Assembly (NCBI GenBank): GCA_964523895.1
Contig: CAZGBJ010000003.1
Coordinates: 47,798 to 111,797 of the forward strand
Origin: an uncultured Enterobacteriaceae bacterium
GTDB taxonomy: Bacteria > Pseudomonadota > Gammaproteobacteria > Eutrophobiales > Eutrophobiaceae
Length of the DNA stretch: 64,000 bases
Direction: 5' to 3'
This document shows positions 2,399-34,277 of this stretch, one piece after another (position 1 is the stretch's first letter; each line of letters opens with the position of its first letter). The notes under the pieces are model-generated. The model ran no database searches. It saw only the letters and a list, made by a program, of their open reading frames with translations, and was not told the origin of the DNA. Made by a program: the position numbers and the translations under genes.

Positions 2399-2586
2399 GG
2401 GCGTCTCTGAAAATAGAATTATTTTTGTGAGAACAAGAAAGTACCGCGCACACGACTGCATGGATGCAGGAGGTAGAGCGACGCAGGAAGCCAAAGCCGA
2501 GAACCGCAGTGTATGAGTATTACATGAGGATTCGAGCACGGTGCTGACACAGTTATCGCGGAAATAAGACATTTTCAGAGGTGCCC
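2399..2586. mobile_element. MITE-like element carrying 49-bp core cassette (2453-2501)
   Basis: Imperfect terminal inverted repeats GGGCGTCTCTGAAAAT / ATTTTCAGAGGTGCCC; no coding capacity. Confidence 0.75.
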
Positions 2587-2624
2587 TAACTTTTATAGGC
2601 TTAAGGCCTTATTGGGGGAATAAA

Positions 2625-4622
2625 ATGCTTTCAAGGCATGAACTTGCCAATGCGATTCGTGCATTAAGTATGGATGCCGTACAACGTGCAAATTCGGGAC
2701 ATCCAGGTGCACCGATGGGCATGGCGGATATTGCTGAAGTCTTGTGGAATGATTTTCTACAGCATAATCCTGCCAATCCAGACTGGGATAATCGCGACCG
2801 CTTCGTCATGTCTAATGGTCATGGCTCGATGTTGGTCTATTCCTTATTGCACCTTACCGGTTATGACCTGGTTATCGATGAACTCAAAAACTTTCGCCAA
2901 TTGCATTCTAAAACACCTGGTCATCCTGAATACGGTTACGCGCCTGGAGTAGAAACAACAACGGGTCCTCTGGGTCAAGGCATTACCAATGCCGTTGGTA
3001 TGGCATTGGCAGAATCAGTATTAGCTGCAAAATTTAATAAAGACGATTTTAATATCGTCGATCACTACACTTATGTCACTGTCGGTGATGGTTGTTTAAT
3101 GGAAGGTATCTCACACGAAGCCTGCTCTCTTGCTGGCACACTAGGTCTGGGCAAATTAATCACCTTCTATGATAGTAATCAGATCTCCATCGATGGTGAT
3201 ATTGAAGGCTGGTTTGCTGAAGATGTTGCCGCACGCTTTGAAGCCTACGGTTGGCATGTGATTCGTGATGTTGATGGTCATAACCCTGATGAGATTAAAA
3301 AAGCGATTGAAGACGCCATCGCTAATAAGTCACAACCTAGCATACTGTGTTGTAACACCATCATCGGTTGGGGATCACCTAACAAAGAAGGAAAAGCATC
3401 GAGTCACGGTGCGCCTTTAGGTGATGATGAAATAATATTGACTCGTGAAAAGCTGGGCTGGAAACATGATGCCTTTGTCATTCCCGATGAAGTCTATGCG
3501 GGATGGGATGCCAAAGAACGTGGTAAAGAACTAGAGTCCGCATGGAATGAAAAATTATCTGCTTATTCATCTGCGCATCCTGAATTGGCAGCAGAATATC
3601 AACGCCGCATGAATGGCGCGTTACCAGATAACTGGAATGACGTTGTTAATGACTATATTAAGACAACGAATGAAAAGGCCGAGTCTATTGCCTCACGTAA
3701 GGCATCACAAAATTCTATCGAAGCATTTGCTAAACATCTTCCAGAATTGATTGGTGGCTCAGCTGATCTTGCCTGTTCCAATCTAACCAGCTGGTCAGGA
3801 ACAGTAGCTATAAGCAATGAAAATAAAGATGGCAACACCATTAATTATGGTGTGCGTGAATTCGCGATGTCTGCTATCAATACCGGTATTTCACTACATG
3901 GCGGTTTTATTCCTTACTCGGCAACTTTTTTAATGTTTTCCGAATATGCAAGAAATGCCTTACGCATGTCAGCATTGATGAAAAAGCAAAACATCTTTAT
4001 CTATACGCATGACTCAATCGGCCTGGGTGAAGATGGCCCAACCCACCAAGCAGTTGAACAAGCTTCAACACTACGTTTAATGCCAAACATGTCACTATGG
4101 CGTCCTTGTGATGCCGTAGAATCTGCAATTGCATGGAAGGCGGCAATTGAGCGACATGATGGTCCAACAAGTTTGTTGTTTTCTCGCCAAGGTCTGGCAC
4201 ATATGCAACGAGATGATGCGCAGCTGAATAATATTCAACGCGGTGGCTATGTATTACTTAATGGCAGTGATAATCCTGATGCTATTATTATTGCAACCGG
4301 CTCTGAAATAGAAATGGCGGTTAATACAGCGAAGAAATTAAATTCAGACGGTAAAAAAATTCGCGTTGTCTCGATGCCTAGTACCGATAGTTACGATCAA
4401 CAAGACGATGCTTACAAAGAATCTGTTTTACCTGATGCCTGTCGCAAGCGTATTGCTGTTGAAGCAGGTGTTACCGAATATTGGAGAAAGTATATCGGTC
4501 TTGATGGCACAGCACTTGGTATCGACACCTTTGGTGAATCAGCACCGGCAAAAGAAGTCTACAAACATTTCGGACTGACTGAAGAAAACCTGATCAAAAC
4601 AGTAAGTGATTTAATTAAATAA
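2625..4622 (+). CDS. tkt: Transketolase
   Basis: [34 protein letters not shown] motifs. Confidence 0.99.
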
Positions 4623-4657
4623 GCAACAAAACAATTATAAAAAGTGGAGTATGAAGA

Positions 4658-5671
4658 ATGGCAATTAAAGTAGGTATCAATGGCTACGGTCGTATTGGTC
4701 GCAACATCTTACGTGCGGTATATGAAGCAGGACGAACCGATGAAATTCAGATCGTCGCTATTAATGATTTAGGCGATTCAAATGCCAATGCTCATCTTAC
4801 TCAATATGATACCGCTCATGGAAAATTTCCGGGTACTGTTGTTGTCGAAGGTGACAATATGATTGTTAATGGTGACAAAGTACGTGTCCTTTCAGAACGT
4901 GATCCGGCTAACTTACCCTGGGGAGAATTAGGTGTTGATGTCGTACTGGAATCAACCGGCTTTTTTGCCAGTAAAGCTAAAGCAAGTGCTCACCTTACCG
5001 GTGGTGCTAAGAAAGTCATTATATCTGCACCCGGTGGCAGTGATGTAGATGCCACGGTTGTTTATGGAGTTAATCATGGCGTACTTAAATCTAGCGACAC
5101 AGTAATTTCAAATGCATCATGTACCACTAACTGTCTAGCACCTGTTGCAAAAGTTATTCATGAAAACATCGGTATGGTTGCGGGCGTTATGACCACAATT
5201 CATGCTTATACCAATGATCAGGTTTTAACCGATGTTTATCATTCGGATTTACGCCGTGCACGTTCTGCGACCATGTCTATGATTCCGACCAAGACCGGAG
5301 CTGCTGCTGCAGTAGGATTGGTATTACCAGAACTAAACGGAAAGCTTGATGGCTTTTCTGTTCGTGTCCCAACGATCAATGTTTCTATGGTTGACTTAAG
5401 TTTTACCGCTGCAAGAGATACGTCTATCGAAGAAATTAATAGCTTAATGAAAACCGCTGCAGAAGGCCCACTTAAAGGTGTGCTTGCTTATAATGAAGCA
5501 CCGTTAGTCTCTATCGATTTTAATCATGACCCGGCATCATCAACCTTTGACGCATCATTAACCAAGGTTCTTGAAGGTAAATTGGTTAAAGTCATTGCAT
5601 GGTATGACAATGAGTGGGGCTTTTCTAATCGTATGTTAGATACTACTGTTGCATTAATGAACGCAAGTTAG
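4658..5671 (+). CDS. gap: Glyceraldehyde-3-phosphate dehydrogenase type I
   Basis: [29 protein letters not shown]. Confidence 0.98.
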
Positions 5672-5687
5672 AGAATAATATAAAGAA

Positions 5688-6899
5688 GTGTCAATACTGG
5701 TAAAAATTGCTGATCTGGATTTGTCGGGTAAGACGGTACTTATCCGTGAAGATTTTAATGTCCCGATAAAAAATGGTGAAGTCACTAGTGACATACGAAT
5801 TCGTGCCGCAATACCAACACTCAAGGAAGTACTAGATGCAGGTGCGAAAATAATTTTAGTATCTCATTTAGGTCGTCCTGTTGCTGGCGAATATGACGAT
5901 GCCTTTTCACTTGCGCCTGTCGCTAAATCATTAAGCGATCTTCTGAACATTAATGTTCCAGTAATTAAAGACTGGGTCAGTGGCATTAACATGGCAGATC
6001 ATCGGGTTGTGCTTTGCGAAAATGTACGCTTCGAACCAGGCGAAACAAAAAATGATGATGAACTTGCACGTCACATGGCACAGCTATGCCAGGTTTATAT
6101 CAATGATGCCTTTGCAACTGCACATCGCGCACAGGCATCAACACACGGCGTCGCTAAATATGCTGGAATATCAGCGGCAGGACCTTTACTGATTAATGAA
6201 TTAAAATCGTTATCTAAAGCGTTAAGAGAACCTGAAAAACCGGTTATTGCGATCGTTGGTGGCGCAAAAGTATCAAGCAAACTTACCATTCTTGAAAGCC
6301 TGTCCGAAAAGGTTGACCAGTTAATTGTTGGTGGTGGCATTGTAAATACCTTTTTAAAAGCGGCCGGCTATGAAGTTGGCAAATCGCTTTATGAAGCTGA
6401 TTTGGTTGAGGTCGCTAGTAGACTCATGGAACAAGCTGAAGAGAATGGTTGCCAGATTCCATTACCTATTGATGTTATTTGCGGTAAGGAATTTGATGAG
6501 AAAACAAAAGCGGAAACAAAATTAATCAGCGATGTCGAAACTGACGATATGATTATGGATGTTGGTCCTGAAACAACGAAGATGCTAAATAAGATGATTG
6601 CTAAAGCAAAGACTATCGTCTGGAATGGTCCTCTTGGCGTTTTTGAATTTGATCAATTTAGTAATGGTACTAAGGGGCTTGCAAAAGCTATTGCTGATAG
6701 TGGTGCGTACTCTATTGCCGGAGGCGGGGACACTATTGCCGCTATTTCAAAATTTGGTGTTGAAAACAACATCTCTTATATCTCAACCGGTGGCGGTGCT
6801 TTTCTTGAATTTCTTGAAGGCAAGAAACTTCCTGCTATCGAGATCCTCGAAGAAGCTGCGCGCGCCTGGACTGCGATGGAACAGGCAAGGGAACTGTAA
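5688..6899 (+). CDS. pgk: Phosphoglycerate kinase
   Basis: REDFNVP, SHLGRP, AGGGDT, STGGGAFLE. Confidence 0.98.
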   Translation: MSILVKIADLDLSGKTVLIREDFNVPIKNGEVTSDIRIRAAIPTLKEVLDAGAKIILVSHLGRPVAGEYDDAFSLAPVAKSLSDLLNINVPVIKDWVSGINMADHRVVLCENVRFEPGETKNDDELARHMAQLCQVYINDAFATAHRAQASTHGVAKYAGISAAGPLLINELKSLSKALREPEKPVIAIVGGAKVSSKLTILESLSEKVDQLIVGGGIVNTFLKAAGYEVGKSLYEADLVEVASRLMEQAEENGCQIPLPIDVICGKEFDEKTKAETKLISDVETDDMIMDVGPETTKMLNKMIAKAKTIVWNGPLGVFEFDQFSNGTKGLAKAIADSGAYSIAGGGDTIAAISKFGVENNISYISTGGGAFLEFLEGKKLPAIEILEEAARAWTAMEQAREL

Positions 6900-6972
6900 A
6901 AAATTCTTTATATTTAGAATATGACAAACAACGCTTAATAATAATTATAATAAAATGGACAACCACTAGCAG

Positions 6973-8415
6973 ATGAGAAGAACTAAAATTATTGCAACGC
7001 TTGGGCCAGCTACTGATAAAGCAGGTATGTTGGAGAAGTTGCTTGATGCAGGGGTTGATGTATTTCGACTTAACTATTCTCATCAAACGCATGCAGATCA
7101 TGAAAGACGGATAAATGAAATTCGTCAACTGTCTCATAAAAATAAACACGCCGTTGCTGTCATAGCAGACTTGCAAGGCCCAAAGATTCGGATAGAGCAT
7201 TTCAAAAAAGGGAAAGTTCAACTACTGGAAGGTGCTAATTTTAAAATTAATACTAATCTCGCTACTGAAGATGGTGATGAAACTCAGGTTGGCGTCACTT
7301 ACAAAGAGCTCGCTAAAGATGTAAAAGCAAAAGACAAATTGTTAATCGACGATGGAAAAATTGTTTTGCATGTTAAATCTGTCGATAAACATATTATTGA
7401 TTGCGAAGTTGTCACTGGCGGAGAATTAAGTAACAACAAGGGCATCAATCTTCAAGGCGGTGGCTTATCAGCAAGTGCCGTTACTGAAAAAGATGTCGAA
7501 GATATGAAGCATGCTGCTGAAATAAAAGTCGATTATATAGCCATCTCATTTCCAAGAGATGAAAACGATGTGAAGAAAGCACGTAAGATGATGGATGAAT
7601 GTAATTGTGCTGCACGATTAATTTCAAAAATTGAACGTGCCGAAGCACTTAATCATATTGAGGAAATCATTGAAGCTTCTGATGCGATCATGATTGCACG
7701 CGGTGATTTAGGTGTAGAAATTGGTGATGCTGCTTTACCGCCCGTACAAAAAAGCCTGATTAAAATGGCAAGAGATATGGATACAGCAGTCATAACGGCA
7801 ACGCAAATGATGGAATCTATGACCGAACATAAAATTCCGACTCGTGCTGAAGTGTTTGATGTTGCCAATGCCGTTATTGATGGTACCGATGCGGTAATGT
7901 TATCTGGCGAAACCAGTATTGGTCTTTATCCAGATAAAGTGGTTGAAGCAATGTCACGTGTTTGTGAAGAAGCAGAAAAGCAGCGCAGCGTGCGTATATC
8001 AGATCATCGTATTAATCAACGTTTTGAAACTATTTCAGAAGCTGTCGCTATGTCGACCATGTATGCTGCGAACCATATAGGCGCTAAAGCAATTTGTACA
8101 CTAACCGAAACTGGCGGAACTTGCTTATGGATGTCACGTATTAGTTCAGGCTTGCCTATCTTTGCATTTACCAGACATACTTCTACGCGAAGACGAGTCG
8201 CATTGTACCGTGGCGTTTATCCTATGAAACTGGATATCACCCATACTGATCCACTGGAAGCAAACAAACAAATGGTCGATCAACTAATAGCTCAAGGCAC
8301 TGTTGAAGATGGTGATTATGTCATTATTACTAAAGGTGACTTGCGAGGTAAACGCGGCGGCACTAACAATATGAAAATCATTCAAGTAGGACAGGCACTA
8401 GAACATACTCTTTAA
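6973..8415 (+). CDS. pyk: Pyruvate kinase
   Basis: RRTKIIATLGPA, DLQGPKIR, ARGDLGVE, VMLSGET. Confidence 0.98.
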   Translation: MRRTKIIATLGPATDKAGMLEKLLDAGVDVFRLNYSHQTHADHERRINEIRQLSHKNKHAVAVIADLQGPKIRIEHFKKGKVQLLEGANFKINTNLATEDGDETQVGVTYKELAKDVKAKDKLLIDDGKIVLHVKSVDKHIIDCEVVTGGELSNNKGINLQGGGLSASAVTEKDVEDMKHAAEIKVDYIAISFPRDENDVKKARKMMDECNCAARLISKIERAEALNHIEEIIEASDAIMIARGDLGVEIGDAALPPVQKSLIKMARDMDTAVITATQMMESMTEHKIPTRAEVFDVANAVIDGTDAVMLSGETSIGLYPDKVVEAMSRVCEEAEKQRSVRISDHRINQRFETISEAVAMSTMYAANHIGAKAICTLTETGGTCLWMSRISSGLPIFAFTRHTSTRRRVALYRGVYPMKLDITHTDPLEANKQMVDQLIAQGTVEDGDYVIITKGDLRGKRGGTNNMKIIQVGQALEHTL

Positions 8416-8463
8416 AAGAATCACACAAATAACACTATAAATAGCGTTAACGAGGCAAATAAA

Positions 8464-9486
8464 ATGAGCGCAGCAGAACTCGAAGCAACAGCAAAAACAA
8501 TGGTAGAAAATGGTAAAGGTATTCTTGCCATAGACGAAAGCACACCAACTATAGGCAAGCGGTTTGATACGATTAATCTCGAATCGACTGAAGAAAATAG
8601 ACGCACCTATCGTGATTTATTAATCACTAACCCCGGTGGCAAAGAATACATCAGTGGCATGATTCTTTTTGATGAAACAATTCGTCAATCAACCAGTGAT
8701 GGTACGCCTTTCGCTAAAGCATTAATTGATCAAGGCATCATGCCTGGAATTAAAGTCGATACTGGCGCTAAGGAGTTTGCTCGACATCCGGATGAAAAAA
8801 TCACTGAAGGTCTTGATGGCCTACGTGATCGCTTGGCCGAGTATAAAGAACTTGGTGCTAAATTTGCCAAATGGCGAGCTGTTATAACCATTGGAGATAA
8901 TATTCCAAGTCAGGCATGTATCGATGCTAATGCACATGCACTTGCTCGTTACGCCGGACTCTGTCAGGAAGCAGGCATTGTTCCTATGGTTGAGCCTGAA
9001 GTTTTAATGGATGCAGATAATACAATTGAACGTTGTTATGAAGTAACTGAAAAAACATTATCAACATTATTCAATGCACTTAAGAGTCAGGATGTCAGTA
9101 TTGAACACACCATCTTAAAAATTAATATGGTGATCTCTGGCAAGCAATGTTCAACACAAGCTGATGTACAGGAGGTAGCAGATAAAACGGTAGAATGTCT
9201 ACTCAAGAACGTACCTGCTGAACTTCCTGGTATCGTTTTTCTTTCTGGCGGACAAAGTGAGGAACTGGCAACAGCCCACCTTAATGCAATGAACGCTGGT
9301 AATTCTGACCTTCCCTGGCCATTAAGCTTTTCTTATGGACGCGCACTACAAGCACCATGTATTAAAGCATGGGGTGGTAAAGCCGAAAATGTTGAAGCTG
9401 CACAAAAAGCTTTATTGCATCGTTCTAAATGTAATAGCCTGGCTTGCAAAGGCGAGTACAACGCAGATATGGAAAATATTTCTTAA
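8464..9486 (+). CDS. fba: Fructose-bisphosphate aldolase class I
   Basis: GILAIDES, FAKWR, VEPEVL, FLSGGQSE, FSYGRALQ. Confidence 0.96.
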   Translation: MSAAELEATAKTMVENGKGILAIDESTPTIGKRFDTINLESTEENRRTYRDLLITNPGGKEYISGMILFDETIRQSTSDGTPFAKALIDQGIMPGIKVDTGAKEFARHPDEKITEGLDGLRDRLAEYKELGAKFAKWRAVITIGDNIPSQACIDANAHALARYAGLCQEAGIVPMVEPEVLMDADNTIERCYEVTEKTLSTLFNALKSQDVSIEHTILKINMVISGKQCSTQADVQEVADKTVECLLKNVPAELPGIVFLSGGQSEELATAHLNAMNAGNSDLPWPLSFSYGRALQAPCIKAWGGKAENVEAAQKALLHRSKCNSLACKGEYNADMENIS

Positions 9487-9498
9487 AAATTAATACTC

Positions 9499-9762
9499 AT
9501 GTCAGATATTAATTTAACTGAAGAGGCAAGTGCCGCCTATCAAGCCTTTCAGGCAATGCGAGAAAGCAAACAAACATACTTTACATTCCTGCAAGAAATT
9601 GATGTCAAATACAAAGAAGGTGGTGAAGCAAGCAGTAATGAAACCGAGGAGCTTTCAAAGCTCCTCGCTAGTCATAGTGAAAAAGTCGCTGTATTCAATG
9701 ATGCAATGAAAGCCGTTGAAGACTTTGAAGCAAGAGATGCATTAATTAAACTGATGTCTTAA
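9499..9762 (+). CDS. Hypothetical helical protein
   Basis: 87-aa ORF 12 bp after fba on the same strand; no family recognised. Confidence 0.65.
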   Translation: MSDINLTEEASAAYQAFQAMRESKQTYFTFLQEIDVKYKEGGEASSNETEELSKLLASHSEKVAVFNDAMKAVEDFEARDALIKLMS

Positions 9763-9783
9763 CCCCGTTTAATTAGAATCTTA

Positions 9784-9987
9784 TTACTGATTTTCTAACG
9801 CATTGCGGGTATTTTCAGCCGCATCCATCATTATTCCTTCAACTTCTTTTGCTTTATTGATCGTGTCCGTTTGTTCTTTCCAAACGTGATCTTCTTTAGC
9901 TGCCGTACCGCTATTTCCTTCATCGGAACAGGCTATAAGAAATAAACATAAACTCGTTAATAACGATAACCTTATAAATTTGCCCAT
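9784..9987 (-). CDS. Small putative lipoprotein
   Basis: Signal peptide with lipobox-like LIAC; SD-like GGAG upstream. Confidence 0.7.
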   Translation of the reverse strand: MGKFIRLSLLTSLCLFLIACSDEGNSGTAAKEDHVWKEQTDTINKAKEVEGIMMDAAENTRNALENQ

Positions 9988-10004
9988 AACCAGCTCCTAT
10001 TTGT

Positions 10005-10652
10005 TTATTCTTCTAATTGAATATCTTCTACTGGAACAAAGTCATCACCTTGTTTACCTAATAAACTACCGGAATCAATATCGAAATACCAGCCATGCAC
10101 GAATAGTTTTCCTTCATCATAACGCTCCTTAATCCAAGGGAAAGTCATTAAGTTTTTTAATGACGTTTCAATTGATGCCTTTTCACAAAGCGTACATTGT
10201 TCTGAAAACTCTTTATCACCGTGTTCTTCTAATATCTTATTACGCGCTGACTTCGCTATCTCCATCCATGGATCGATAAACACATATTTATGATCTAGAT
10301 GATCTCCTTCCATTAAACTTTTAATACCACCACACTGACTATGTCCAAAAACAATAATATGTTTTACTTCGAGATGCTTTATCGCAAACTCCATCGCAGC
10401 ACTGGTACCGTGAGACTTATCATCGGGTTCGTTAACCGGAACAAGATTAGCAACATTACGAATAACGAAAATATCACCCGGAACGGTATCCATAACTTGA
10501 GCAGGATGGACACGCGAATCACAACAGGATATCACTAGAAATTTTGGTGACTGACCTTGTTCAAATAAACTATTATAAACTTCCGGTTGCTCTTCAAAAT
10601 ATTTTTGATGAAAACGTTGATAGCCATCAATTAAATTAATTATCTCTTTCAT
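10005..10652 (-). CDS. can: Beta-class carbonic anhydrase
   Basis: CCDSRV, RNVAN, GHSQCGG zinc ligands. Confidence 0.96.
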   Translation of the reverse strand: MKEIINLIDGYQRFHQKYFEEQPEVYNSLFEQGQSPKFLVISCCDSRVHPAQVMDTVPGDIFVIRNVANLVPVNEPDDKSHGTSAAMEFAIKHLEVKHIIVFGHSQCGGIKSLMEGDHLDHKYVFIDPWMEIAKSARNKILEEHGDKEFSEQCTLCEKASIETSLKNLMTFPWIKERYDEGKLFVHGWYFDIDSGSLLGKQGDDFVPVEDIQLEE

Positions 10653-10668
10653 TCAGTCTACTTACCTC

Positions 10669-11598
10669 TTACAGTATTAATTTATCGCGTGCTTCTTCGT
10701 ATTTTGCCGCGGTGTTATTCATCACTTCTTCTGGCAATTTTGGCCCAGGTGCCGTTTTATCCCAATCTAGTGTTTCCAGATAATCCCTAATATATTGCTT
10801 ATCAAAACTGGGCGGACTTGTGCCCACCTCATATGATTCTACAGGCCAGAATCGTGATGAATCCGGTGTTAAAACTTCATCAATCAAAACAAGTTCTTCA
10901 TTTTCGTCCAGACCAAATTCAAATTTGGTATCAGCAATAATAATGCCTTTTGTCCGAGCATATTCCACTGCCTGAGTGTAAATTTTCAAACTAATATCGC
11001 GAACCTGCTCTGCCAGTTTTTTCCCGATCAACTTAACAGTTTCATCAAAATCAATGTTCTCATCATGGTCACCAACATCGGCTTTTGTTGCGGGAGTAAA
11101 AATGGGTTCCGGCAATTTTTCGGCTTGTTGTAAACCTGATGGTAGACTGATTCCACAAACAGAACCCGTTGCTTGATAATCCTTCCAGCCAGAGCCAATT
11201 AAGTAACCACGGATAACTGCTTCGATAGGTAAAGGTTTTAATTTTCTTACAACAATAGCTCGGCCTGCCAAAACGTCGAGCTCGTCTGTTTCTTTAATCA
11301 CATCTTTAACCGGAATATCAGTCAAATGATTTGGAAGAATACTTTCACACCGTTTAAACCAGAAATTAGACACTTCTGTTAACACGCGACCTTTACCAGG
11401 AATTGGATCGGGTAAAATAACATCAAACGCTGAGAGCCGATCACTGGTTACGATCAACATATGCTGATCATCAATACCGTATATATCCCTGACCTTGCCA
11501 TTACTAATAAGCGGTAAACTTTTAATATGAGAACGATAAAGTACGTCTGATTTGGATTGCATAATGTTAAAAACGAGCCCTTCTTTATAAAGCGCCAT
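10669..11598 (-). CDS. purC: SAICAR synthetase (probable start 11562)
   Basis: [34 protein letters not shown]. Confidence 0.97.
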
Positions 11599-11650
11599 TC
11601 TCCCACACTCGCTAGATTTCAGCTATTGCTCGCTGCAAGAAAAAAACTGC

Positions 11651-12478: not shown

Positions 12479-12554
12479 CTGAATACAAAAAATTGTGTGC
12501 TAATGCACAAGAGATACAGTTACAGGTATATATACCTCGTTGTATTAATAATAC

Positions 12555-13976
12555 CTAGAAATCAACTCTTATCGTCATGCTGATTCTATCTTCGTCAAAA
12601 TCTTCTCTGAGAAAACGTTTACTGTATTCGAGATTACCGCTAATACCATTCTTATTAAAATAACGAAAACCCGTCGTCATCAATATATCATCACTGTCAT
12701 TTGAAGCTTGCGGACCTGTTGCCACAGTAATTTCTCTCAATTGAAAATCGTTTTGATAAGATAAATTAATAAAGGGCTCATAATTGTCCCAGCTATAAGC
12801 AATATCACCCGCAATACTCAAGGAACCCAATTTGGTGCGGCTATCATCAACAACGATTCCGTTACTCTCTGTATAACTATCTATATTACTACTTGCATAC
12901 GAAGCACCAACACGACCACCAATGATCCAATTATCATAAAAGGTAATACCGTTAAGATTGAATGCGCTAAACCATCTGTCTGCATTCGGCGTACTGGTAA
13001 TTTGAGTCGTTGTCGCTGGAGCGACACGAAATTGATTATATTCAACTTTCGAATAACCCACAGTGAAATCAACACTTAAACTGTCCGTTAATAATGCACC
13101 AAAATAAGGAGCTATCGTGTAACTATCCGTCTCCTGGTTCCCCGAGTTAAATGTCGTATCAACATCTCCTCTATCATAACCAAAAGCAACGCCTAATATC
13201 GTATTGCCCCAAAAGCCAAAATCAATCCCACCAAGGAAACTATGACTGGTACCATCAAAAGCAGTGCTACTCAGGTTATTTTCATAATCGGTATAGGAAT
13301 AACTACCCCATACACCGTAAGGAATTGTTGATCCGTCACCAGCATTCAGCCCCGTGGCACCTTGCAATTTGAATTGATTGTCAGTGACACGGGAACCACT
13401 GGTAAAACCTACGCCGCTCAATGCACCGGAAACGTGACCACTAACATCTGAAATCGTACTCTGCACCTGAGTATTAAATAAAGCAGCTTCTGTAACTGTA
13501 CTACTACTTGTAACCTCAGGAACAATAACGTTGCTACCACTGACACGAGTCAACGTTGCAGAAGTTGAAAATGTACAGCCGCCACCAAAATCGCCTGTTG
13601 AAGTAGTGGTCAGTGTGGTTCCAATTAGTGTTGCAGAAAATGAAGTAAATACACCAAAATTACCAAAAGAATCTTGCAGACCACCACTGAGTCCAGTAAG
13701 TGTGTTACCAGAAATTGAATTTGATCCTTGAAAACTTACGATTGATCCATCAAATGTTGCATTAGTCGTTCCTGTGGCGCTAATAATATTTCCATTCAGA
13801 CCTGAAAAAGAAGTAGAGTTAGTGCCATTAAAAGGACCGCCAGCACATGAACCAAATAGAGTTATGCTCTCTGGACCGACAAATGTGCCTAAAAAATCCT
13901 CATTAGTAACCGCAGTCGCCGAAACAGGCAAATAAAACAATGCGAACAACAAGAAAGGTGAGATTAAACGATTCAT
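12555..13976 (-). CDS. Autotransporter-like outer-membrane beta-barrel protein, paralog 1
   Basis: Signal peptide, Ser/Thr/Gly-rich N-domain, linker, amphipathic beta-strands, C-terminal Phe. Confidence 0.8.
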   Translation of the reverse strand: MNRLISPFLLFALFYLPVSATAVTNEDFLGTFVGPESITLFGSCAGGPFNGTNSTSFSGLNGNIISATGTTNATFDGSIVSFQGSNSISGNTLTGLSGGLQDSFGNFGVFTSFSATLIGTTLTTTSTGDFGGGCTFSTSATLTRVSGSNVIVPEVTSSSTVTEAALFNTQVQSTISDVSGHVSGALSGVGFTSGSRVTDNQFKLQGATGLNAGDGSTIPYGVWGSYSYTDYENNLSSTAFDGTSHSFLGGIDFGFWGNTILGVAFGYDRGDVDTTFNSGNQETDSYTIAPYFGALLTDSLSVDFTVGYSKVEYNQFRVAPATTTQITSTPNADRWFSAFNLNGITFYDNWIIGGRVGASYASSNIDSYTESNGIVVDDSRTKLGSLSIAGDIAYSWDNYEPFINLSYQNDFQLREITVATGPQASNDSDDILMTTGFRYFNKNGISGNLEYSKRFLREDFDEDRISMTIRVDF

Positions 13977-13982
13977 AGAATT

Positions 13983-14014
13983 TCCCTTAATTCCTTAATT
14001 CCTTAATTCCTTAA
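13983..14014. repeat. Octamer tandem repeat (TTCCTTAA)x~4 containing the SD of 12555-13976
   Basis: tcccttaa ttccttaa ttccttaa ttccttaa; minus strand reads TTAAGGAA repeats ending 6 nt before the ATG. Confidence 0.9.
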
Positions 14015-14082
14015 TTAAGCTTGGAAAATACAACAATTAAATGAAAAAAACTACATTTTCCGTGAAAGATACTTGAATTAAC

Positions 14083-15537
14083 CTAGAAATCAGCCCTTAT
14101 CGTCACGCTAATTCTGTCTTCGTCAAAATTATCTCTGAGAAAGCGTTTACTGTATTCGAGATTGCCAGTAATACCATTTTTATTGAAGTATCGTACGCCC
14201 GTCGTCATTAAAATATCATCACTATCATTAGAAGGTTGTGCGCCGGTTGTTACACTTATTTCTCTTAATGAAAAATCATTCTGATAGGATAAATTGATAA
14301 AGGGCTCATAGTCTTTATAACTATAGGCTACGTCACCGGCTATGCTTATCGTTCCAACTTTGGTTCGGCTGTCGGCGACGACTGTTCCGTTACTTTCTGT
14401 GTACGAATCTATCGTGCTACTCGCATATGAGGTACCAATACGCCCACCAATGATCCAATTATCATAATAAGTCACGCCATTCAGATTAAGTGCACCAAAT
14501 ACTCTGTTTGAAATAGGTGAACTGGTAATCCGTGTAGTGCTCCCGGTTACAACACGAAATTGATCATAATCAACTTTCGAATAACCCACTGTGAAATCAA
14601 GACTCATACTATCGGTTAATAATGCACCAAAATAAGGAGCAATCGTGTAAGTATCGGTTTCCTGATTACCCGAATTAAAAGTTGTATCGAGATCCCCTGA
14701 ATCATAACCAAAAGCAATACCTAGTATTGTGTTGTCCCAAAAACCAAAATCTACCCCACCAAGAAAACCGTGACTAGTCCCTTCAAAGGCGGTACTACTC
14801 AGATCATTTTCATAATCTGTATAGGAATAACTGCCCCATACGCCGTAAGGAACAGCTGAACCATCGCCCGCATTTAAACCCGTTGCGCCTTCAAGTATGA
14901 GCTGATTATCACCGACAAAATGTAAGCCGCCAAAAAATATACCGCTCAATGCAGCGGCAACATGGCTGCTGACACCTGAAATCGTACCTTGAATTAGTAG
15001 ATTAAATAAAACGGCGTCTGTTACTGTACTACTGGCAGTGACATCCGGAGTGATCACATTACCACCTGTGAGTGTAAGCGAAGCAACATCATTAAGAAAA
15101 CACTGAGGACTACCACTGGTATCTGCCCCATTAGTAGTGAAATTAAAAACCCCATTAATTATTGTTCCTAATAAAGTACCTGAGGAAGTACTGCCGGGCT
15201 CTACTGTTGAGAAAGAAGCAGTCACATTACCAGCACTATCCACTGTGCCTGTCAATGTGGTAGTACCAATACCATCCGATGCAGATCCAGTAAAATTTGC
15301 ACCAATTTGGTTTGAAAGCGTCAACGATAAAGTAGATACATCTACAAAAGGTCCTGCATTAGGGGGGCCGCCTGGAAAAGCCGTGCCACAACCAGTTTCA
15401 GTCGTGGTAATCTGACCAGAGTATGTTCCTGTAACATCAGGAAAGGCTGCACGTACATTTGTACTAAATAGCAGAGACATTAATACAAGAAAAACTATAT
15501 TTATCAGCCTATTAGGAACATTAATCCTTTTATACAT
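14083..15537 (-). CDS. Autotransporter-like outer-membrane beta-barrel protein, paralog 2
   Basis: Same architecture; barrel nearly identical to paralog 1 (PYGVWGSYSYTDYEN...APYFGALLTDS...GNLEYSKRFLR). Confidence 0.8.
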   Translation of the reverse strand: MYKRINVPNRLINIVFLVLMSLLFSTNVRAAFPDVTGTYSGQITTTETGCGTAFPGGPPNAGPFVDVSTLSLTLSNQIGANFTGSASDGIGTTTLTGTVDSAGNVTASFSTVEPGSTSSGTLLGTIINGVFNFTTNGADTSGSPQCFLNDVASLTLTGGNVITPDVTASSTVTDAVLFNLLIQGTISGVSSHVAAALSGIFFGGLHFVGDNQLILEGATGLNAGDGSAVPYGVWGSYSYTDYENDLSSTAFEGTSHGFLGGVDFGFWDNTILGIAFGYDSGDLDTTFNSGNQETDTYTIAPYFGALLTDSMSLDFTVGYSKVDYDQFRVVTGSTTRITSSPISNRVFGALNLNGVTYYDNWIIGGRIGTSYASSTIDSYTESNGTVVADSRTKVGTISIAGDVAYSYKDYEPFINLSYQNDFSLREISVTTGAQPSNDSDDILMTTGVRYFNKNGITGNLEYSKRFLRDNFDEDRISVTIRADF

Positions 15538-15771
15538 GCTAAAGACACCCCAGAGGAATTGTTATTTTTATAAAACCAGGCATGCATTATTGAATTTGCA
15601 AATACAGGCACTAAACTTAGGAAAACAGTTGCATGAACAACGTTTACTCATCATATAATATATGAACCATAGAGAAAACGTGTTTATGTCACATTCGTAA
15701 TAAATTGATTTTATATTCTTAAAAAAATAAACATACAATCTACACAAACCATCAATATGCACTAATAGATT

Positions 15772-16464: not shown

Positions 16465-16479
16465 AAATATCGGTGAAGG

Positions 16480-18165: not shown

Positions 18166-18202
18166 GAACTATCCTGTTTGTTATTACTAACCAAGCTTAT
18201 TA

Positions 18203-18271
18203 GCCACAGAGTACACAGAGATCATTGAGATTAAGAAATATAAAACCAATTAGCTCTGTGTACTCTGTGGC
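18203..18271. repeat. Short inverted-repeat element / possible terminator
   Basis: Perfect 18-bp inverted repeat GCCACAGAGTACACAGAG / CTCTGTGTACTCTGTGGC around an AT-rich spacer. Confidence 0.85.
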
Positions 18272-18318
18272 AAATGGTTTTTATGACATCTTTAATTGCT
18301 TGATGATTATTTTCGTTA

Positions 18319-22062: not shown

Positions 22063-22080
22063 CCCAAAATCTCCATAGAA

Positions 22081-30832: not shown

Positions 30833-32627
30833 ATTTACGTGAACGCTTTTGTTTGCCTTTAGCACGCTTTCTTTTTTCTGCAGCTGTTTTTCTTTGCTTT
30901 TTCTTTTTTGGTTTTGTCGAAACTTCATTCTTCTCGCCCAATCGCGAGATATTTAATTGTTGCTTCGCCACCCAAACCTTTTTTAAGTCACGGAATAATT
31001 CTCTCGGCATACCGATAGGTAAATCCAGCGTCGAATAACTATCATGTATCGTTACATTCTTGATGTATTGGCTATCAACACCCGCTTCATTAGCAATGGC
31101 ACCAACGATGTTGTTAATCTGTACATCATGATTATTTCCGACTTCAATTCGAAAACGTTCCATATCTCGATCAGGACGAGATTGTCTTGGTCTTCTTTCT
31201 CTATTACCTTGACGTGAAGAATTATCACTATCACGAGAACGATCTTTATTGCGCGAGCGATCATTATTACGTGATTTGTCATTCTTCTCTTTTCTCATCG
31301 GTTTAACAAAAAATGGTTCCGCACCTTGCGATATCTTTGCTAAGGCCGTGGCAATGTCCATTGCCGAATGACCTGATTCAACCTGGTATTCTTCAATGAT
31401 TGAATGAAATAATTCTACCTCTTCATTTTCAAGTGTGTCGCTAATACGTTGTTTGAAGCGTTGAATACGTTCCTGGTTAATTGTTTCCGCCGTAGGCATA
31501 TGCATACGTTCAATTTTTTTGCCAGTCACTTTTTCTATCATGCGCAACAAACGTTGTTCACGATTTGTTACAAATAGAATAGCTTCGCCTACGCGACCTG
31601 CCCTTCCTGTTCGACCGATACGATGTGTATAAGCTTCGGGGTCACTGGGAATATCGAAATTGATTACATGACTGATTCGTTCAACATCTAGACCGCGAGC
31701 CGCTACATCGGTCGCAACTAACATATCCAGTTTCCCAGCTTTTAATCTATTAATTGTTTGTTCTCGTATTCTTTGCGTCAAATCACCATTTAATGCTGTA
31801 CTGGCGTAGCCACGCGCTGCTAATTTTTCGGCTAATTCAATTGTTTCAACCTTGGTGCGTACAAAAATAAGTATTGCATTAAACGTCATGCTTTCCAGAA
31901 TTGTCGTTAAAGCTTCGAGTTTTTGTCTTCCGTTTACGATCATAAAACGCTGTCGAATCGTATCTGCTGTAATACTCTTTGTTTTAATTGTGACCTGTTC
32001 AGGATTGTTTAAATATTTTTTGGATATCTTACGAATCTCTGTCGGCATCGTAGCCGAAAATAAAGTAACCTGGCGTTTCGTCGGTAGTTGTTCGAGCACC
32101 CATTCAACATCATCAATAAAACCCATGCGTAACATTTCATCAGCTTCATCCAGAACCAGAGTTGTTAATTTATCCAGTTTTAATGTGCCACGACGCATAT
32201 GGTCCATAACCCGTCCAGGCGTGCCGACAACAACATGCACACCACGTTTGAGTTGGCGTAACTGTACACCGTATTCCTGACCACCATAGATAGGCAAAAC
32301 ATGAAACCCTTTTAGAAAACCAGCATATTGTTGAAAAGCTTCTGCTACCTGAATTGCTAGCTCACGGGTAGGGGCTAAAACCAGAACTTGTGGCGTAGCC
32401 AACTTGAGATCAATTTTAGTCAGTATTGGTAATGCAAAGGCCGCTGTCTTACCTGTACCCGTTTGAGCCTGTCCAATAACATCGCGTCCATTCATTACAT
32501 GAGGAATAATTTCAGCCTGAATCGGCGAAGGTGTCTCATAACCTACTTTTTTAACTGCCTTCAAAACAGACGCCGATAGCGACAGATCGTCAAACGTCAG
32601 ATTGGAAGAATTATCAGTATTGCTCAT
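30816..32627 (-). CDS. deaD: DEAD-box RNA helicase DeaD/CsdA
   Basis: AQTGTGKT, PTRELA, DEAD, SAT, HRIGRTGR, DbpA-type C-domain. Confidence 0.95.
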   Translation of the reverse strand: MSNTDNSSNLTFDDLSLSASVLKAVKKVGYETPSPIQAEIIPHVMNGRDVIGQAQTGTGKTAAFALPILTKIDLKLATPQVLVLAPTRELAIQVAEAFQQYAGFLKGFHVLPIYGGQEYGVQLRQLKRGVHVVVGTPGRVMDHMRRGTLKLDKLTTLVLDEADEMLRMGFIDDVEWVLEQLPTKRQVTLFSATMPTEIRKISKKYLNNPEQVTIKTKSITADTIRQRFMIVNGRQKLEALTTILESMTFNAILIFVRTKVETIELAEKLAARGYASTALNGDLTQRIREQTINRLKAGKLDMLVATDVAARGLDVERISHVINFDIPSDPEAYTHRIGRTGRAGRVGEAILFVTNREQRLLRMIEKVTGKKIERMHMPTAETINQERIQRFKQRISDTLENEEVELFHSIIEEYQVESGHSAMDIATALAKISQGAEPFFVKPMRKEKNDKSRNNDRSRNKDRSRDSDNSSRQGNRERRPRQSRPDRDMERFRIEVGNNHDVQINNIVGAIANEAGVDSQYIKNVTIHDSYSTLDLPIGMPRELFRDLKKVWVAKQQLNISRLGEKNEVSTKPKKKKQRKTAAEKRKRAKGKQKRSRKSKSSS

Positions 32628-32797
32628 GGAAACTTGCCTTATGGGTGTAGGAACGATAATAACCGCGTTATTATCAGGATTATAGGCTACCCGACAACAA
32701 GCGACCGCGAAGTATACGGGCTTGCTAGCCCGTTACAAGCCTAATATTGTTTGATTAGAGTGATATTTAGCCAAAATTGACTAATCGAAAAATTTTA

Positions 32798-34078
32798 CTA
32801 CTCTCTTTCTACTGCCCTATAACCGATATCTTTTCTAAAAAATAGTCCATCATAATTAATATGTTTTAGCGCCTGGTAGGCTTCTTTTTGTGCTACTGTC
32901 ACTGTATCGCCTAATCCTGTTACGCATAATACGCGACCACCGGCAGTAACTACTCTATCATTATTGTTTGCAGTACCTGCATGAAACACTTTTACATTTT
33001 CAGAAAAATCAGATTCAAGTCCATTAATAATATCACCTTTACTTGCGCCTTCTGGATAACCTGCTGAAGCTGTAACAACACCCAAGGCTGCTCTTTCATC
33101 CCATTCAGCAGAACATTGGCCTAATGTACTTTTTGTTGCGGCAAGACAAAGTGAAACCAGATCACTTTTTAAACGCATCATAATTGCTTGTGTTTCCGGA
33201 TCACCGAAGCGGCAATTAAATTCTAAAACTTTCGCTGTATCGTCTTTTGTAATCATAACGCCAGCATATAAAAAACCGGAATAGGTTCTGTCTTCACTCG
33301 CCATACCCTTTATCGTAGGCATAATAACTTCATCCATTATTCGATCATGCATTGCTGCATCAACTATTGGTGCTGGAGAATAAGCACCCATGCCACCGGT
33401 ATTCGGTCCCTTATCACCTTCATCGCGAGCTTTATGATCTTGTGAACTCGCGAGTGGTAGTACATGTTCACCATCCGACATCACGATAAAGCTGGCTTCT
33501 TCACCTTGCATAAACTCTTCGATAACAACACGATGACCGGCTTCACCAAACTTATTACCAGACAACATATCGTTAACTGTATTAATTGCTTCTTCTTCAT
33601 TTTCAGCAATAACAACACCTTTGCCCGCAGCTAAACCATCAGCCTTTATTACAATAGGTGTTGATTTTGATTTGATATATTGAATTGCAGATTCGACCTC
33701 GGTAAAGACGTCGTATTCAGCCGTTGGAATATTATGTCGTTTTAGAAAATCTTTACTAAACGACTTTGAACCTTCAAGTATTGCGCCAGCTTTAGTTGGA
33801 CCAAAGCAAGCAAGTCCGGCTTGTTGAAAATCATCAACAATACCTGCAACTAATGGCGCCTCAGGGCCAATAATAGTCAGATCGATTCGTTCTTTTTCAG
33901 CAAACGCTTTTAACGCATCAATGTCCTCTGCACCAATAGCAACATTCTCACATTTATTTTCAGTCGCCGTTCCGGCATTACCGGGTGCAACATAGACAAT
34001 ATCAGCTTGATCAGACTGTGCCGCTTTCCATGCCAAAGCATGTTCACGACCACCACCACCGACAATGAGTATTTTCAT
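32798..34078 (-). CDS. purD: Phosphoribosylamine-glycine ligase
   Basis: GGGGREHAL, KADGLAAGKGV, GPNTGGMG, EFNCRFGDPE. Confidence 0.99.
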   Translation of the reverse strand: MKILIVGGGGREHALAWKAAQSDQADIVYVAPGNAGTATENKCENVAIGAEDIDALKAFAEKERIDLTIIGPEAPLVAGIVDDFQQAGLACFGPTKAGAILEGSKSFSKDFLKRHNIPTAEYDVFTEVESAIQYIKSKSTPIVIKADGLAAGKGVVIAENEEEAINTVNDMLSGNKFGEAGHRVVIEEFMQGEEASFIVMSDGEHVLPLASSQDHKARDEGDKGPNTGGMGAYSPAPIVDAAMHDRIMDEVIMPTIKGMASEDRTYSGFLYAGVMITKDDTAKVLEFNCRFGDPETQAIMMRLKSDLVSLCLAATKSTLGQCSAEWDERAALGVVTASAGYPEGASKGDIINGLESDFSENVKVFHAGTANNNDRVVTAGGRVLCVTGLGDTVTVAQKEAYQALKHINYDGLFFRKDIGYRAVERE

Positions 34079-34103
34079 ATAAAACTCTTATGTTTACATA
34101 TTG

Positions 34104-34277
34104 ACTGACGGAGTAGATTTTTTGTTAATTCGAGACGCAATCATGAGTGAGCACGGACGACTACATGGATGTAGTCGGTAGAGCGACGCAGGATGCCAAA
34201 GCCGAATTTATTCATTAATAAACCAGTAGCGCAGCGAAGATTGCAACAAAGAAGTAACAAAAAATATGCCCGTCAGT
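34104..34277. mobile_element. MITE-like element carrying core cassette (34158-34206)
   Basis: ACTGACGG..ATTTTTTGTTA / TAACAAAAAAT..CCGTCAGT; right arm contains the purH stop. Confidence 0.75.

Follow-up and report, generated by a model that had tools for sequence, protein, structure and literature searches.

We found that a short repeat, here called the core, is a discrete unit that is precisely present or absent at [G/C]A^G[G/A] sites, and that it has inserted into itself, into many small repeat families and, in-frame, into genes. On balance, we take the core to be a minimal (47-48 nt), non-autonomous, REP-like piece of mobile DNA that bears hairpins and is moved in trans, rather than a classical MITE.

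The window, by which we mean the whole 64-kb stretch of DNA that was analysed, contains four copies of the 48-nt unit (CGAC…CCGA). All four lie between ORFs, each within a different self-complementary element of 165-295 bp (Table 1). Three copies, at 2453-2501(+), 29396-29444(+) and 34158-34206(+), had 0-3 mismatches to the pattern, with none expected (pattern search, 100 shuffles). The diverged copy at 27970-28017(-) was picked up by nhmmer and by a covariance model at 77 bits, and an unfiltered covariance-model scan of the 64-kb window found no copy beyond the four. A sequence-only reading of the window had described four copies of a 49-bp cassette; all four were recovered, but conservation across genomes sets the unit at 48 nt. 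The compensatory change that it reported in hairpin A is genuine (G:C to A:T, CTGCA/TGCAG versus CTACA/TGTAG), and the four peptides that it quoted are correct translations of one stop-free frame.

Table 1. Core copies and their host elements (H1 to H4) in the window; the limits of the copies were set by cross-genome conservation.
Feature	Position	Strand	Score or fold
Core copy 1, B2 subtype, 48 nt	2453..2500	+	58.8 bits (covariance model)
Host element H1 around copy 1	2399..2590	.	IR arms, fold z = -3.8
Core copy 2, B1 subtype, 48 nt, B hairpin intact (GCAACG…CAGTTGC)	27970..28017	-	77.3 bits
Host element H2 around copy 2	27922..28116	.	fold z = -5.1
Core copy 3, B2 subtype, 48 nt	29396..29443	+	50.7 bits
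Host element H3 around copy 3	29238..29530	.	fold z = -5.7
Core copy 4, B2 subtype, 48 nt	34158..34205	+	41 bits
Host element H4 around copy 4	34109..34272	.	arms 34117-34131/34251-34265, fold z = -4.1

The genes flanking the window copies are housekeeping genes. H1 is MITE-like, with imperfect terminal inverted repeats (GGGCGTCTCTGAAAAT… and …ATTTTCAGAGGTGCCC), and lies between the gene for an AhpC/TSA peroxiredoxin and tkt. H2 lies between the convergent dtd and hemF, and the orthologous site in the relatives L121, L122 and L123 is without H2. H3, which has nested arms (29240-29266/29503-29529 and 29359-29375/29472-29488), separates the divergent hemF and hisB. H4 has inserted in the purH-purD gap, which measures 7 bp in the relative L122, and no related host was found elsewhere among the loci compared. 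All four composites of core and flanks fold as long imperfect hairpins (z = -3.8 to -5.7), and an all-against-all BLAST of the intergenic DNA detected no similarity between the flanks of the four copies. The earlier claim of flanks that are mutually unrelated, yet each self-complementary, was borne out.

The unit consists of hairpin A with the loop TGGA, the linker GGTAG, hairpin B with the loop GCAGGAGCA and the tail CGA. Its consensus reads 5'-CGA-[hairpin A: 5-bp variable stem, loop TGGA]-GA-GGTAG-N-[hairpin B: 5+2-bp variable stem, loop GYNKGGARCR]-CGA-3'. The B stem has 5 bp and, after a 1-nt bulge, another 2 bp, with an apical loop of 5 nt (9-10 nt when the inner 2-bp stem is counted as loop), and GTAG is placed 1 nt 5' of this stem in nearly all copies. 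Copy 1 has hairpin A CTGCA-TGGA-TGCAG, the linker GGTAG, a B module interrupted by an internal loop (GCGACGCAGGAAGCCAAAGCC) and the CGA end. Like two other window copies it belongs to the B2 subtype, which has a 3x4-nt internal loop and a poor B hairpin; in copy 4 hairpin A is lengthened to 8 bp (CGACTACA-TGGA-TGTAGTCG). The unit folds as DNA with z = -3.4. Both stems covary strongly, with 97.9% of cells paired and double changes in 9 of 12 pairs, which none of 500 shuffles equalled. The stems are kept by compensatory change, and across several proteobacterial orders the loops, linker and termini are conserved. Relatives with wholly different stems yet the same loops occur in L008 and L064. 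The earlier suggestion of a modular repeat system was partly right, in that A-type and B-type hairpins with different stems form mosaics.

Comparison of copies across genomes defined the insertion sites. The inserted length is always 47-48 nt (47 nt in 27% of copies) and conservation ends abruptly at the borders, where position -1 is A in 101 of 113 copies, position +1 is G in 91 of 113 and position +2 is G or A. Position -2 equals the element's own penultimate base in only ∼35% of copies. The hosts of copies 1, 2 and 3 are known in the empty state, with a gap of exactly 48 nt: a single MAG (L019) has the H1 family in both states, filled and empty, and L121 and L128 have it empty, H2 has a counterpart of 89% identity without the core (L056 6437-6546), and for H3 the empty L295 1608-1847(-) reads CCACCAGA^GCTACGG where the filled site reads CAACAGA-core-GCTACGG. 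More than 15 further host repeat families exist in filled and empty states, as do alleles of the BREX gene pglX. These data support the earlier view that the core is a separate mini-element inserted in other repeats, and since L019 holds the host both with and without the core, the two spread independently. No filled/empty pair has a target duplication, only an ambiguity of 1-2 nt. The core also inserts into itself, and nested (AAAABBBB) and tandem (ABABAB) arrays follow the same junction rule, as in the nested array of L006 (GCAGGA^GGTAG) and the tandem arrays of L034 and L081 (GCCGA^CGAC). In-frame insertions in proteins, for which a search had been proposed, do occur. PglX contains an in-frame copy on the Salmonella plasmid NZ_CP133280.1 and in E. 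coli ZF31/ZF34; the E. coli alleles used for comparison lack it. In CobN of Methylobacter svalbardensis the insert splits the Pfam match.

A search of genome databases gave at least 120 loci in very diverse taxa, and Pseudoalteromonas chromids besides. Near-identical copies are present in Pseudomonas, Methylobacter, Shewanella, Pseudoalteromonas, Lysobacterales, Chromatiales and Zetaproteobacteria. A single copy was found in 98 of 121 sequences (the 120 listed loci and the window), and inverted pairs occur in a minority of loci (L005, L008, L088 and L120). The distribution is patchy, with one copy in ∼1 Mb of hisB-centred loci of other Proteobacteria. The nearest relatives of the window are only ∼75% identical in DNA, which limits how far recent mobility can be judged. 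The copies had no match in Rfam at the gathering threshold or at E ≤ 10, and a search of literature text found no paper that contains the sequence of the unit.

How might the core move? In the mechanism that we favour, the core would fold as single-stranded DNA and be cut and joined by an enzyme acting in trans, for which an HUH/Y1 tyrosine transposase of RAYT or IS200/IS605 type is the most probable candidate. Such an enzyme would recognise the loops as well as GTAG with its hairpin, and its cut would fall 3' of an NGA/NCA motif; the element itself ends in a motif of the same kind (…CCGA) as this putative cleavage motif. Inverted-repeat (IR) hosts could be frequent because single-stranded DNA or extruded hairpins are easier to reach, or because copies accumulate in neutral 'safe havens', and their frequency need not mean that the core depends on them.

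We searched for the enzyme near the core. No transposase adjoining the copies was found, and a RAYT probe gave no adjacent match by tblastn. The earlier statement that the window lacks a transposase agrees with two partial checks, the housekeeping neighbours of the copies and the RAYT probe, which had no match in the window. A transposase flanked by the core had also been envisaged; instead, the three RAYT-like genes seen in core-bearing genomes (L011, L087 and L205), in a search that covered parts of genomes, each stand next to other GT[AG]G REPs of their own. No gene family was enriched beside the copies, and a long autonomous version, bounded by A and B and bearing TnpA, was not found among the loci scanned. 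A ends without a following GGTAG gave 62 matches; none was a long element, and nearly all were point variants or small repeats that had nested. Lagging-strand targeting of the IS200/IS605 type predicts a replication-strand bias. The orientation of the core relative to local GC skew (38 versus 51) was not significantly biased, which may count against mobilisation of this type, though the 8-kb skew is a weak proxy.

A wider picture is possible, and we offer it tentatively. The core may be the smallest self-contained transposable unit known in bacteria and the founder of a pan-proteobacterial superfamily of ∼48-nt 'A-GGTAG-B' elements with interchangeable stems. Its members may be moved by an unrecognised, highly conserved enzyme acting on single-stranded DNA, possibly TnpA-Y1 subclass 2.3 or a host enzyme. 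By nesting in each other and in other repeats, they would give rise to the mosaic intergenic regions found in many environmental Gammaproteobacteria, and they would lengthen proteins, the phage-defence methyltransferase PglX among them, by segments of 16 residues. The spread of TnpA-Y1 subclass 2.3 in Chromatiales and Alteromonadales, with no REPs known for it, is described in PMC6006769.

Alternatively, the core could be a site for a conserved host DNA enzyme (a topoisomerase, recombinase, or repair or replication factor) that is copied by host recombination or template switching and not by a dedicated transposase. This would explain the near-identity across orders, and it is consistent with loops and a linker that are extremely conserved in both Gamma- and Zetaproteobacteria, with several searches that found no associated transposase and with the rarity of the core in viral contigs (9 matches). 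We nevertheless consider it unlikely: precise insertions that are specific in motif and orientation, self-nesting included, resemble enzymatic site-specific integration, and a universal host factor does not easily give a patchy distribution.

It is more doubtful that the core is a structured non-coding RNA or a cis-regulatory RNA module, whose loops and AGGAGG would act in the transcript, for instance by binding ribosomes or proteins or by stabilising mRNA. The strong covariation in both stems and the conserved loops would suit an RNA, the linker holds a Shine-Dalgarno-like AGGAGGT, as read directly from the sequence, and some REPs have been proposed to act as RNA (PMC3733652). However, orientation relative to flanking genes is unbiased (25 sense versus 14 antisense, p = 0.11), divergent (promoter) sites are as many as convergent ones (15 and 16), and copy 4 lies on the antisense strand of the purH-purD operon. 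Copies lie in-frame within coding sequences in different frames and orientations, mobile DNA is what behaves in the way seen in the nested and tandem arrays and at the precise empty sites, and Rfam has no match. The ratio of G:T to A:C mismatches (6 versus 2) was uninformative.

We are equally sceptical that the core is a hyperparasite with a specialised preference for loops in other MITEs or palindromes, on which its spread would depend, as the sequence-only reading had proposed. All four window copies lie within IR elements, many hosts are themselves repeat families, and REPs within palindromes are known for other families (PMC3733652). An IR score of at least 10 was obtained for 48% of 90 copies, compared with 5% of random A^G sites and 10% of intergenic A^G sites, a 5-10 fold enrichment; yet no IR host could be detected for about half of the copies. 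Nor do copies sit at the centre or in the loop, as had been claimed: they are mostly off-centre, with median arm distances of 26 and 42 nt and symmetry within 10 nt in only 23% of IR-flanked copies. Other copies lie in unique intergenic DNA, in the coding sequences of pglX and cobN, and within or beside other copies, and the host in L019 also occurs without the core. What the sites share is a motif of 3-4 nt and not a structure, and we saw no sign of host dependence, so 'hyperparasite' is too strong a term.

A classical MITE, an internally deleted DDE-transposase IS moved by cut-and-paste, is very improbable: the core is small, non-coding, multi-copy and intergenic with no transposase nearby, but its ends (CGACTGCA… and …GTTGCCGA) are not inverted repeats, none of the filled/empty pairs has a target-site duplication, and 48 nt is under the usual MITE size. 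We give least credence to a peptide-coding cassette in which the selected unit is a 16-residue protein insert (DCMDAGGRATQEAKAE-like), which the 48-nt length, the five of six open consensus frames and the copies in PglX and CobN might suggest, but which is largely refuted by the intergenic position of most copies and is also opposed by the 47-nt copies, the different frames and strands used in ORFs, the lack of a family matching the unit in Pfam and NCBIfam, and protein-database matches that are tiny spurious ORFs overlying arrays.

If the mechanism of a REP-like element moved in trans holds, the core would define the least that a hairpin-reading DNA transposase needs as its substrate, namely a pair of 5-bp stems with their two loops, a GTAG linker and termini of 3 nt. 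A natural data set for the target rule and the recognition code is at hand in hundreds of filled and empty sites, in the self-nested arrays and in the relatives with swapped stems. If true, this reading would account for the way in which complex mosaic repeats are built between the genes of Methylococcales, Pseudomonadales, Alteromonadales and sulfur-oxidising Gammaproteobacteria. The core has given real proteins (PglX, CobN) in-frame peptide insertions, and its copies cause spurious small ORF calls and split Pfam matches, so that recognising the element would improve annotation.

The core can be compared with several known systems. MITEs carry terminal inverted repeats and target-site duplications; the core has neither, and we rejected a DDE-derived MITE on both counts. 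In passages of PMC5896051 and PMC10969869, bacterial MITEs (Correia/NEMIS, ERIC, and the QMITEs of Coxiella) are, like the core, small non-autonomous interspersed repeats, sometimes nested or fused to ORFs. Rickettsia palindromic elements (RPEs) resemble the core in its in-frame copies in otherwise intact genes. RPEs are reportedly palindromic selfish repeats tolerated in-frame in proteins, and we know of no transposase for them. They are 100-150 bp long and restricted to Rickettsia, whereas the core has 48 nt, is mostly intergenic, occurs in many orders and is unrelated in sequence.

IS200/IS605 elements have no terminal inverted repeats or target duplication, carry a hairpin near each end and insert 3' of a short sequence (PMC6006769 and established knowledge). 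The core resembles them and their miniature derivatives (PATEs) in its subterminal hairpins, in the lack of terminal inverted repeats and target-site duplications, in its insertion 3' of a short conserved target and in its precise presence or absence. It differs in that its hairpins lie 3-4 nt from the ends, which leaves no room for IS608-style guide sequences, in that A and B are dissimilar, and in that no full-length TnpA-encoding element with the same ends was found and no replication-strand bias was detected with the 8-kb skew, a weak proxy.

REP/RAYT systems and the BIMEs of E. coli are, like the core, short intergenic hairpin repeats with GTAG 5' of a covarying stem, and occur as singletons, inverted pairs, clusters and mosaics with other motifs. 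We rejected a REPIN, the inverted doublet of two like REPs, on the predominance of single copies and the unlike A and B. REP families are usually tied to a species-specific RAYT. Two observations speak against the REP-like reading: the B stem of 5+2 bp is below the canonical 7-20 bp of REPs, and near-identity across orders is unlike REP families. GT[AG]G placed 0-2 nt 5' of a hairpin is the hallmark of RAYT/REP (PMC6006769, PMC3733652), and the core has this spacing (GGTAG, 1 nt, B stem). REPs have a basal stem of 7-20 fully paired nt and a loop of 2-5 nt, or a bulged long hairpin (PMC6006769), and the core departs from this in its short stem and large conserved loop. Some REP families lie within larger palindromes or genes, as the core does (PMC3733652). 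Unlike REPs, the core joins two unlike hairpins in one 48-nt unit, has clean filled and empty sites, a defined junction motif and self-nesting, and keeps the same sequence across several orders; the three RAYT genes seen are bordered by other REPs.

All four copies of the core, a 48-nt two-hairpin repeat (CGAC…CCGA), proved to be real when examined by degenerate search, profile HMM, and covariance model. The degenerate search, with no match expected by chance, found copies 1, 3, and 4 at 0-3 mismatches from the consensus of the sequence-only reading, and the more diverged copy 2 was recovered by the profile HMM and the covariance model (77 bits). With its filters off, the covariance model found no further core above noise in all 64 kb. 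When the intergenic regions of the window were compared all against all by BLAST, the core proved to be their sole interspersed repeat and the flanks of the four copies mutually unrelated. Each composite of core and surrounding host element is self-complementary and folds into a long imperfect hairpin (z-scores -3.8 to -5.7). Also correct were the four peptides quoted earlier and, in the first hairpin, the compensatory G:C to A:T change; the original observation therefore stands. All four copies lie between ORFs, next to housekeeping genes.

Features of the window and of compared loci from other genomes (L-numbers), with spacer lengths at the sites of copies 2-4
Feature	Position	Strand	Details
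SAH riboswitch	window 124-210	-	57.2 bits; downstream of metK
metK	window 374-1537	-	
Core copy 1	window 2453-2501	+	between AhpC-type peroxiredoxin gene and tkt
Five same-strand ORFs	window 2625-9486	+	first, transketolase by Pfam (tkt); other four, putative gap, pgk, pyk, fba from lengths and order alone
473-aa gene	window 12553-13976	-	adjacent paralogue of the 484-aa gene; DNA identity 71-78% over 140-300-nt stretches (repeat families D1, D2)
484-aa gene	window 14081-15537	-	adjacent paralogue of the 473-aa gene
6S RNA gene	window 23395-23576	+	75.6 bits
A-like hairpin	window 23760-23800	-	GGTTCA-TGGA-TGAATCC
Core copy 2	window 27970-28017	-	between dtd and hemF (convergent); spacer 265 bp, relatives 78-123 bp
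Core copy 3	window 29396-29444	+	between hemF and hisB (divergent); spacer 304 bp, relatives 26-38 bp
Core copy 4	window 34158-34206	+	within purH-purD operon; spacer 201 bp, relatives 7 bp
Inverted-repeat element without core	window 49052-49247		21-nt arms, 95% complementary
Palindrome within that element	window 49176-49206		GTCATTCCGGGCTTGACCCGGAATGAC
Tandem ~100-bp repeat	L001 4120-4444 and 7064-7090		…ggtgtggtga^ggaacgaaccgcacc…; core in one unit only
Mosaic of stem-swapped hairpins	L064 4400-4760	-	
Giant cadherin/Big_9 adhesin ORF	L068 57-4652	+	contains core
Core inside pglX	L201 3001-3050		Salmonella IncR plasmid NZ_CP133280.1

Apart from the core, the window contains two paralogous genes of 473 and 484 aa, which are a tandem gene duplication. 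Being on the minus strand and downstream of metK, the SAH riboswitch would regulate a gene that lies beyond the window start.

The core is a real, mobile feature, very probably a discrete insertion element that selects its sites. Scanning species-representative genomes for a 23-nt stretch of the core identified at least 120 loci. Among the matches listed, 113 copies had a unit length of 47-48 nt (47 nt in 27% of them) and conservation ended sharply at both edges; position -1 was A in 101 of the 113 and position +1 was G in 91, position +2 was G or A, and positions farther out were random. Host elements were found both filled and empty. H1, the MITE-like element of ~200 bp with terminal inverted repeats around copy 1, occurs twice on one contig of a metagenome-assembled genome (L019), and the filled (cgcgcgGA^CGAC…GTCGA^GAACC, where ^ marks the insertion junction) and empty (cgcgcgGA^GAACC) versions differ solely by 48 nt. 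H1 is also empty in L121 and L128, and H2, the host of copy 2, is empty in L056. A scan with a 17-mer from an arm of H3, the host of copy 3, retrieved an empty H3 in L295 (junction CCACCAGA^GCTACGG) that differs from the filled one by exactly 48 nt; the remaining matches were mostly chance. No relative of the copy 4 host was found elsewhere. When the joined flanks of every copy were searched against all fetched DNA, more than 15 further repeat families were present both filled and empty, with empty junctions including gtggtga^ggaacg, caacgca^gatagt, cgggaga^gggcc, gtgagca^ggagcg, and taggcga^ggcagc. The filled and empty junctions therefore define a target of approximately [G/C]A^G[G/A]. The core has no terminal inverted repeats and its junctions no target-site duplication, with an ambiguity of only 1-2 nt. 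The L001 tandem array offers, on a single contig, handy naturally occurring examples of both filled and empty sites.

The core also inserts into itself. Head-to-tail arrays joined as GCCGA^CGAC are present in L034 and L081, and L006 contains an array of the order AAAABBBB (A and B being the two hairpins of the core), as expected if insertion repeats at the internal GCAGGA^GGTAG site.

The unit consists of a 5' terminal CGA, hairpin A (5-bp stem, loop TGGA), the linker GA-GGTAG-N, hairpin B (5-bp stem plus 2 bp past a bulge, loop GCAGGAGCA or a near variant), and a 3' terminal CGA. In an alignment of 36 distinct copies, 97.9% of the cells were paired and 9 of the 12 pairs had changes on both sides (38 cells). 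None of 500 shuffles matched any of the pairing or covariation measures, and sliding the partners by 1-3 columns reduced pairing to 13-55%. The consensus DNA folds into exactly hairpins A and B (z = -3.4). We compared G:T with A:C mismatches to tell the folding strand, with few events only. Stem-swapped relatives exist that have wholly different stems and the same loops and linker, such as GTCCA-TGGA-TGGAC followed by GTCCT-GCCGGGAGCA-AGGAC in L008. In the B2 subtype of hairpin B (GCGACGCAGGAAGCCAAAGCC), found in window copies 1, 3, and 4, the outer and inner pairs are kept around a 3x4-nt internal loop. B2 is identical in distant genera and is therefore a conserved variant rather than a decayed copy. 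In the dense L064 mosaic, A-type hairpins occur with four different stems, and GGTAG or GGTAC follows every one of them; B-type hairpins are also present, for instance with the loop GTCTGGAACA. The mosaic suggests that stem-swapped relatives, nesting in each other, make up a superfamily. Small elements are also present inside the B module of the core in L248, L215, L038, L101, and L252, including a classical GTAG-REP hairpin (GTAGGCGCTT…AAGCGCCTAC) in L248; hence nesting runs both ways. About 30 nt beyond the A-like hairpin of the window lies GGAAGCCGCAGGCCAAGGC, which faintly resembles a B2 module. The covariance model scored the hairpin alone (8.6 bits, E ~1), and it may be a decayed relative of the core or a chance match.

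The sequence-only reading had proposed, as one of two possibilities, that the core is a hyperparasite inserting into the loops of MITEs. Its claim of insertion within other elements was right, as H1, H2, H3, and the more than 15 further families are known filled and empty. Local inverted-repeat alignment of 120-nt flanks gave scores of at least 10 at 48% of 90 copies, compared with 5% of random A^G sites (p = 5e-13) and 10% of intergenic A^G sites (p = 2e-8) in the same loci. Tests by spanning pairs in the minimum free energy fold and by duplex energy, on flanks of up to 45 nt, did not separate real from random A^G sites. The reading as a loop-specific hyperparasite was unsupported: insertions were mostly off-centre (median arm distances, 26 and 42 nt), with symmetry to within 10 nt in only 23%. 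There was no orientation bias relative to neighbouring genes (25 sense and 14 antisense; 16 convergent and 15 divergent sites) or to local GC skew (38 and 51). The window also contains an inverted-repeat element without a core, and modules of the form GTCATTCC(C/G)G… also adjoin cores in L008, L013, and L069.

Some copies lie inside genes. A search of plasmid records identified a complete unit in-frame within pglX, which encodes the BREX-1 methyltransferase, on a Salmonella plasmid. The insert encodes DDCMDAGGRATQDAKAD, in the stop-free frame pointed out earlier. E. coli ZF31 and ZF34 carry an identical allele in their chromosomes, and E. coli alleles of ~84% identity lack the unit, the difference being exactly 48 nt (empty, AATGCAGA^CAACCGC; filled, AATGCAGA^CGAC…GCCGA^CAACCGC). 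Compared with common E. coli alleles, the filled allele is also missing 30 nt between direct repeats of GTTC. In cobN of Methylobacter svalbardensis the unit and an adjacent repeat are in-frame and together interrupt the Pfam match to CobN. The L068 adhesin ORF contains, besides the core, a second small repeat in numerous in-frame copies (DNA GACGATGTACAGGGACGTACAAGTGTCGCGGGAGGCA^GGATGCCGGGAGCGAC, translated as …DDVQGSTSVAG(A/G)GSAG…). The two-hairpin architecture of this repeat resembles that of the core, for which it often serves as host. In the core consensus, five of six reading frames are open. Pfam and NCBIfam had no family for the core peptide, and a search of 5.8 billion proteins returned only tiny hypothetical ORFs overlying arrays. 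Since 27% of the copies are 47 nt long and most are intergenic, coding is tolerated rather than being what the element is for.

We found the core in Pseudomonas and its recent splits Ectopseudomonas, Aquipseudomonas, and Phytopseudomonas; in Cellvibrionaceae, Marinobacterium, and Endozoicomonas; in Methylobacter, Methylomicrobium, Methyloglobulus, and Methylomarinum; in Shewanella and Pseudoalteromonas; in Dokdonella, Lysobacteraceae, and Steroidobacteraceae; in Ectothiorhodospiraceae, Thiohalomonas, Acidiferrobacterales, Sedimenticola, and Thiomicrorhabdus; and in Mariprofundaceae (Zetaproteobacteria). Carriers include Methylomicrobium lacus (NZ_CP169217.1), Shewanella phaeophyticola, and Methylobacter tundripaludum SV96. 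Its spread is patchy, with 1 copy in 80 hisB-centred loci of other Proteobacteria (~1 Mb) versus 4 in the window. It was rare in viral contigs (9 matches), and a phage collection gave no match. Among 185,579 species representatives, the genomes closest to the window were those of the uncultured Gammaproteobacteria L121 (HisB 92% identical) and a Thiotrichaceae metagenome-assembled genome, L122 (89%), both syntenic with the window at ~75% DNA identity. Where the window has copies 2-4, their spacers are short and have neither arms nor core; thus, the composites were gained in the lineage of the window or lost in the others.

We then considered what moves the element, and found no mover in cis. 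Several features together point to an HUH/Y1 enzyme of the RAYT or IS200/IS605 kind that reads single-strand hairpins: the core lacks terminal inverted repeats and target-site duplications, a hairpin adjoins each end, GTAG precedes hairpin B by 1 nt on the 5' side, the loops are conserved on freely varying stems, and insertion occurs 3' of a short motif resembling its own 3' end. From these sequence features we tentatively propose, at somewhat less than even probability, that an enzyme of this kind would recognise the single-strand hairpins and act in trans on the core. With E. coli RayT as the probe, tblastn turned up RAYT-like ORFs in L011 and L087, and a tblastn against plasmids gave a third RAYT-like gene, in a Pseudoalteromonas chromid also bearing the core. 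Each of the three is flanked by its own, different GT[AG]G REPs. Y1 subclass 2.3 has been described as spreading in Chromatiales and Alteromonadales, with no recognisable REP beside the gene (PMC6006769), and its taxonomic overlap with the carriers of the core makes it a candidate mover. Clustering of neighbouring ORFs gave no family enriched around the copies, apart from paralogues that are ubiquitous (ABC, sigma-54, and DEAD-box). A scan of all genomes for A ends without a following GGTAG yielded 62 cases and no long autonomous version; in nearly all of these, GGTAG was altered by a point change (GGCAG, GGGAG) and B was intact, or small repeats were nested between A and B.

We could not find a description of this 48-nt two-hairpin unit, of its clean junction rule and self-nesting, or of its near-identity across several orders. 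Rfam gave no match over the copies at the gathering threshold or at E <= 10. Sub-strings of the core occurred in no paper text and in no supplement of the GTAG/CGTC survey of REPs; figures are not searchable, and an earlier description is possible. That survey already reported REPs inside larger palindromes and inside genes (PMC3733652), so these behaviours of the core are not new in kind. The closest known systems are GTAG-REPs with their RAYT and BIME mosaics, miniature derivatives of IS200/IS605, Rickettsia palindromic elements, and MITEs. Like REPs, the core has a hairpin with GTAG, but its stems do not have the length that defines a REP, and the predominance of singletons, each made of two unlike hairpins, rules it out as a REPIN. 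The core behaves like an IS200/IS605 derivative, but a parent element was not found, and it resembles the Rickettsia palindromic elements in its in-frame behaviour. Lacking terminal inverted repeats and target-site duplications, it is not a MITE. Overall, we rate the core as belonging with the REP-like, non-autonomous hairpin elements.
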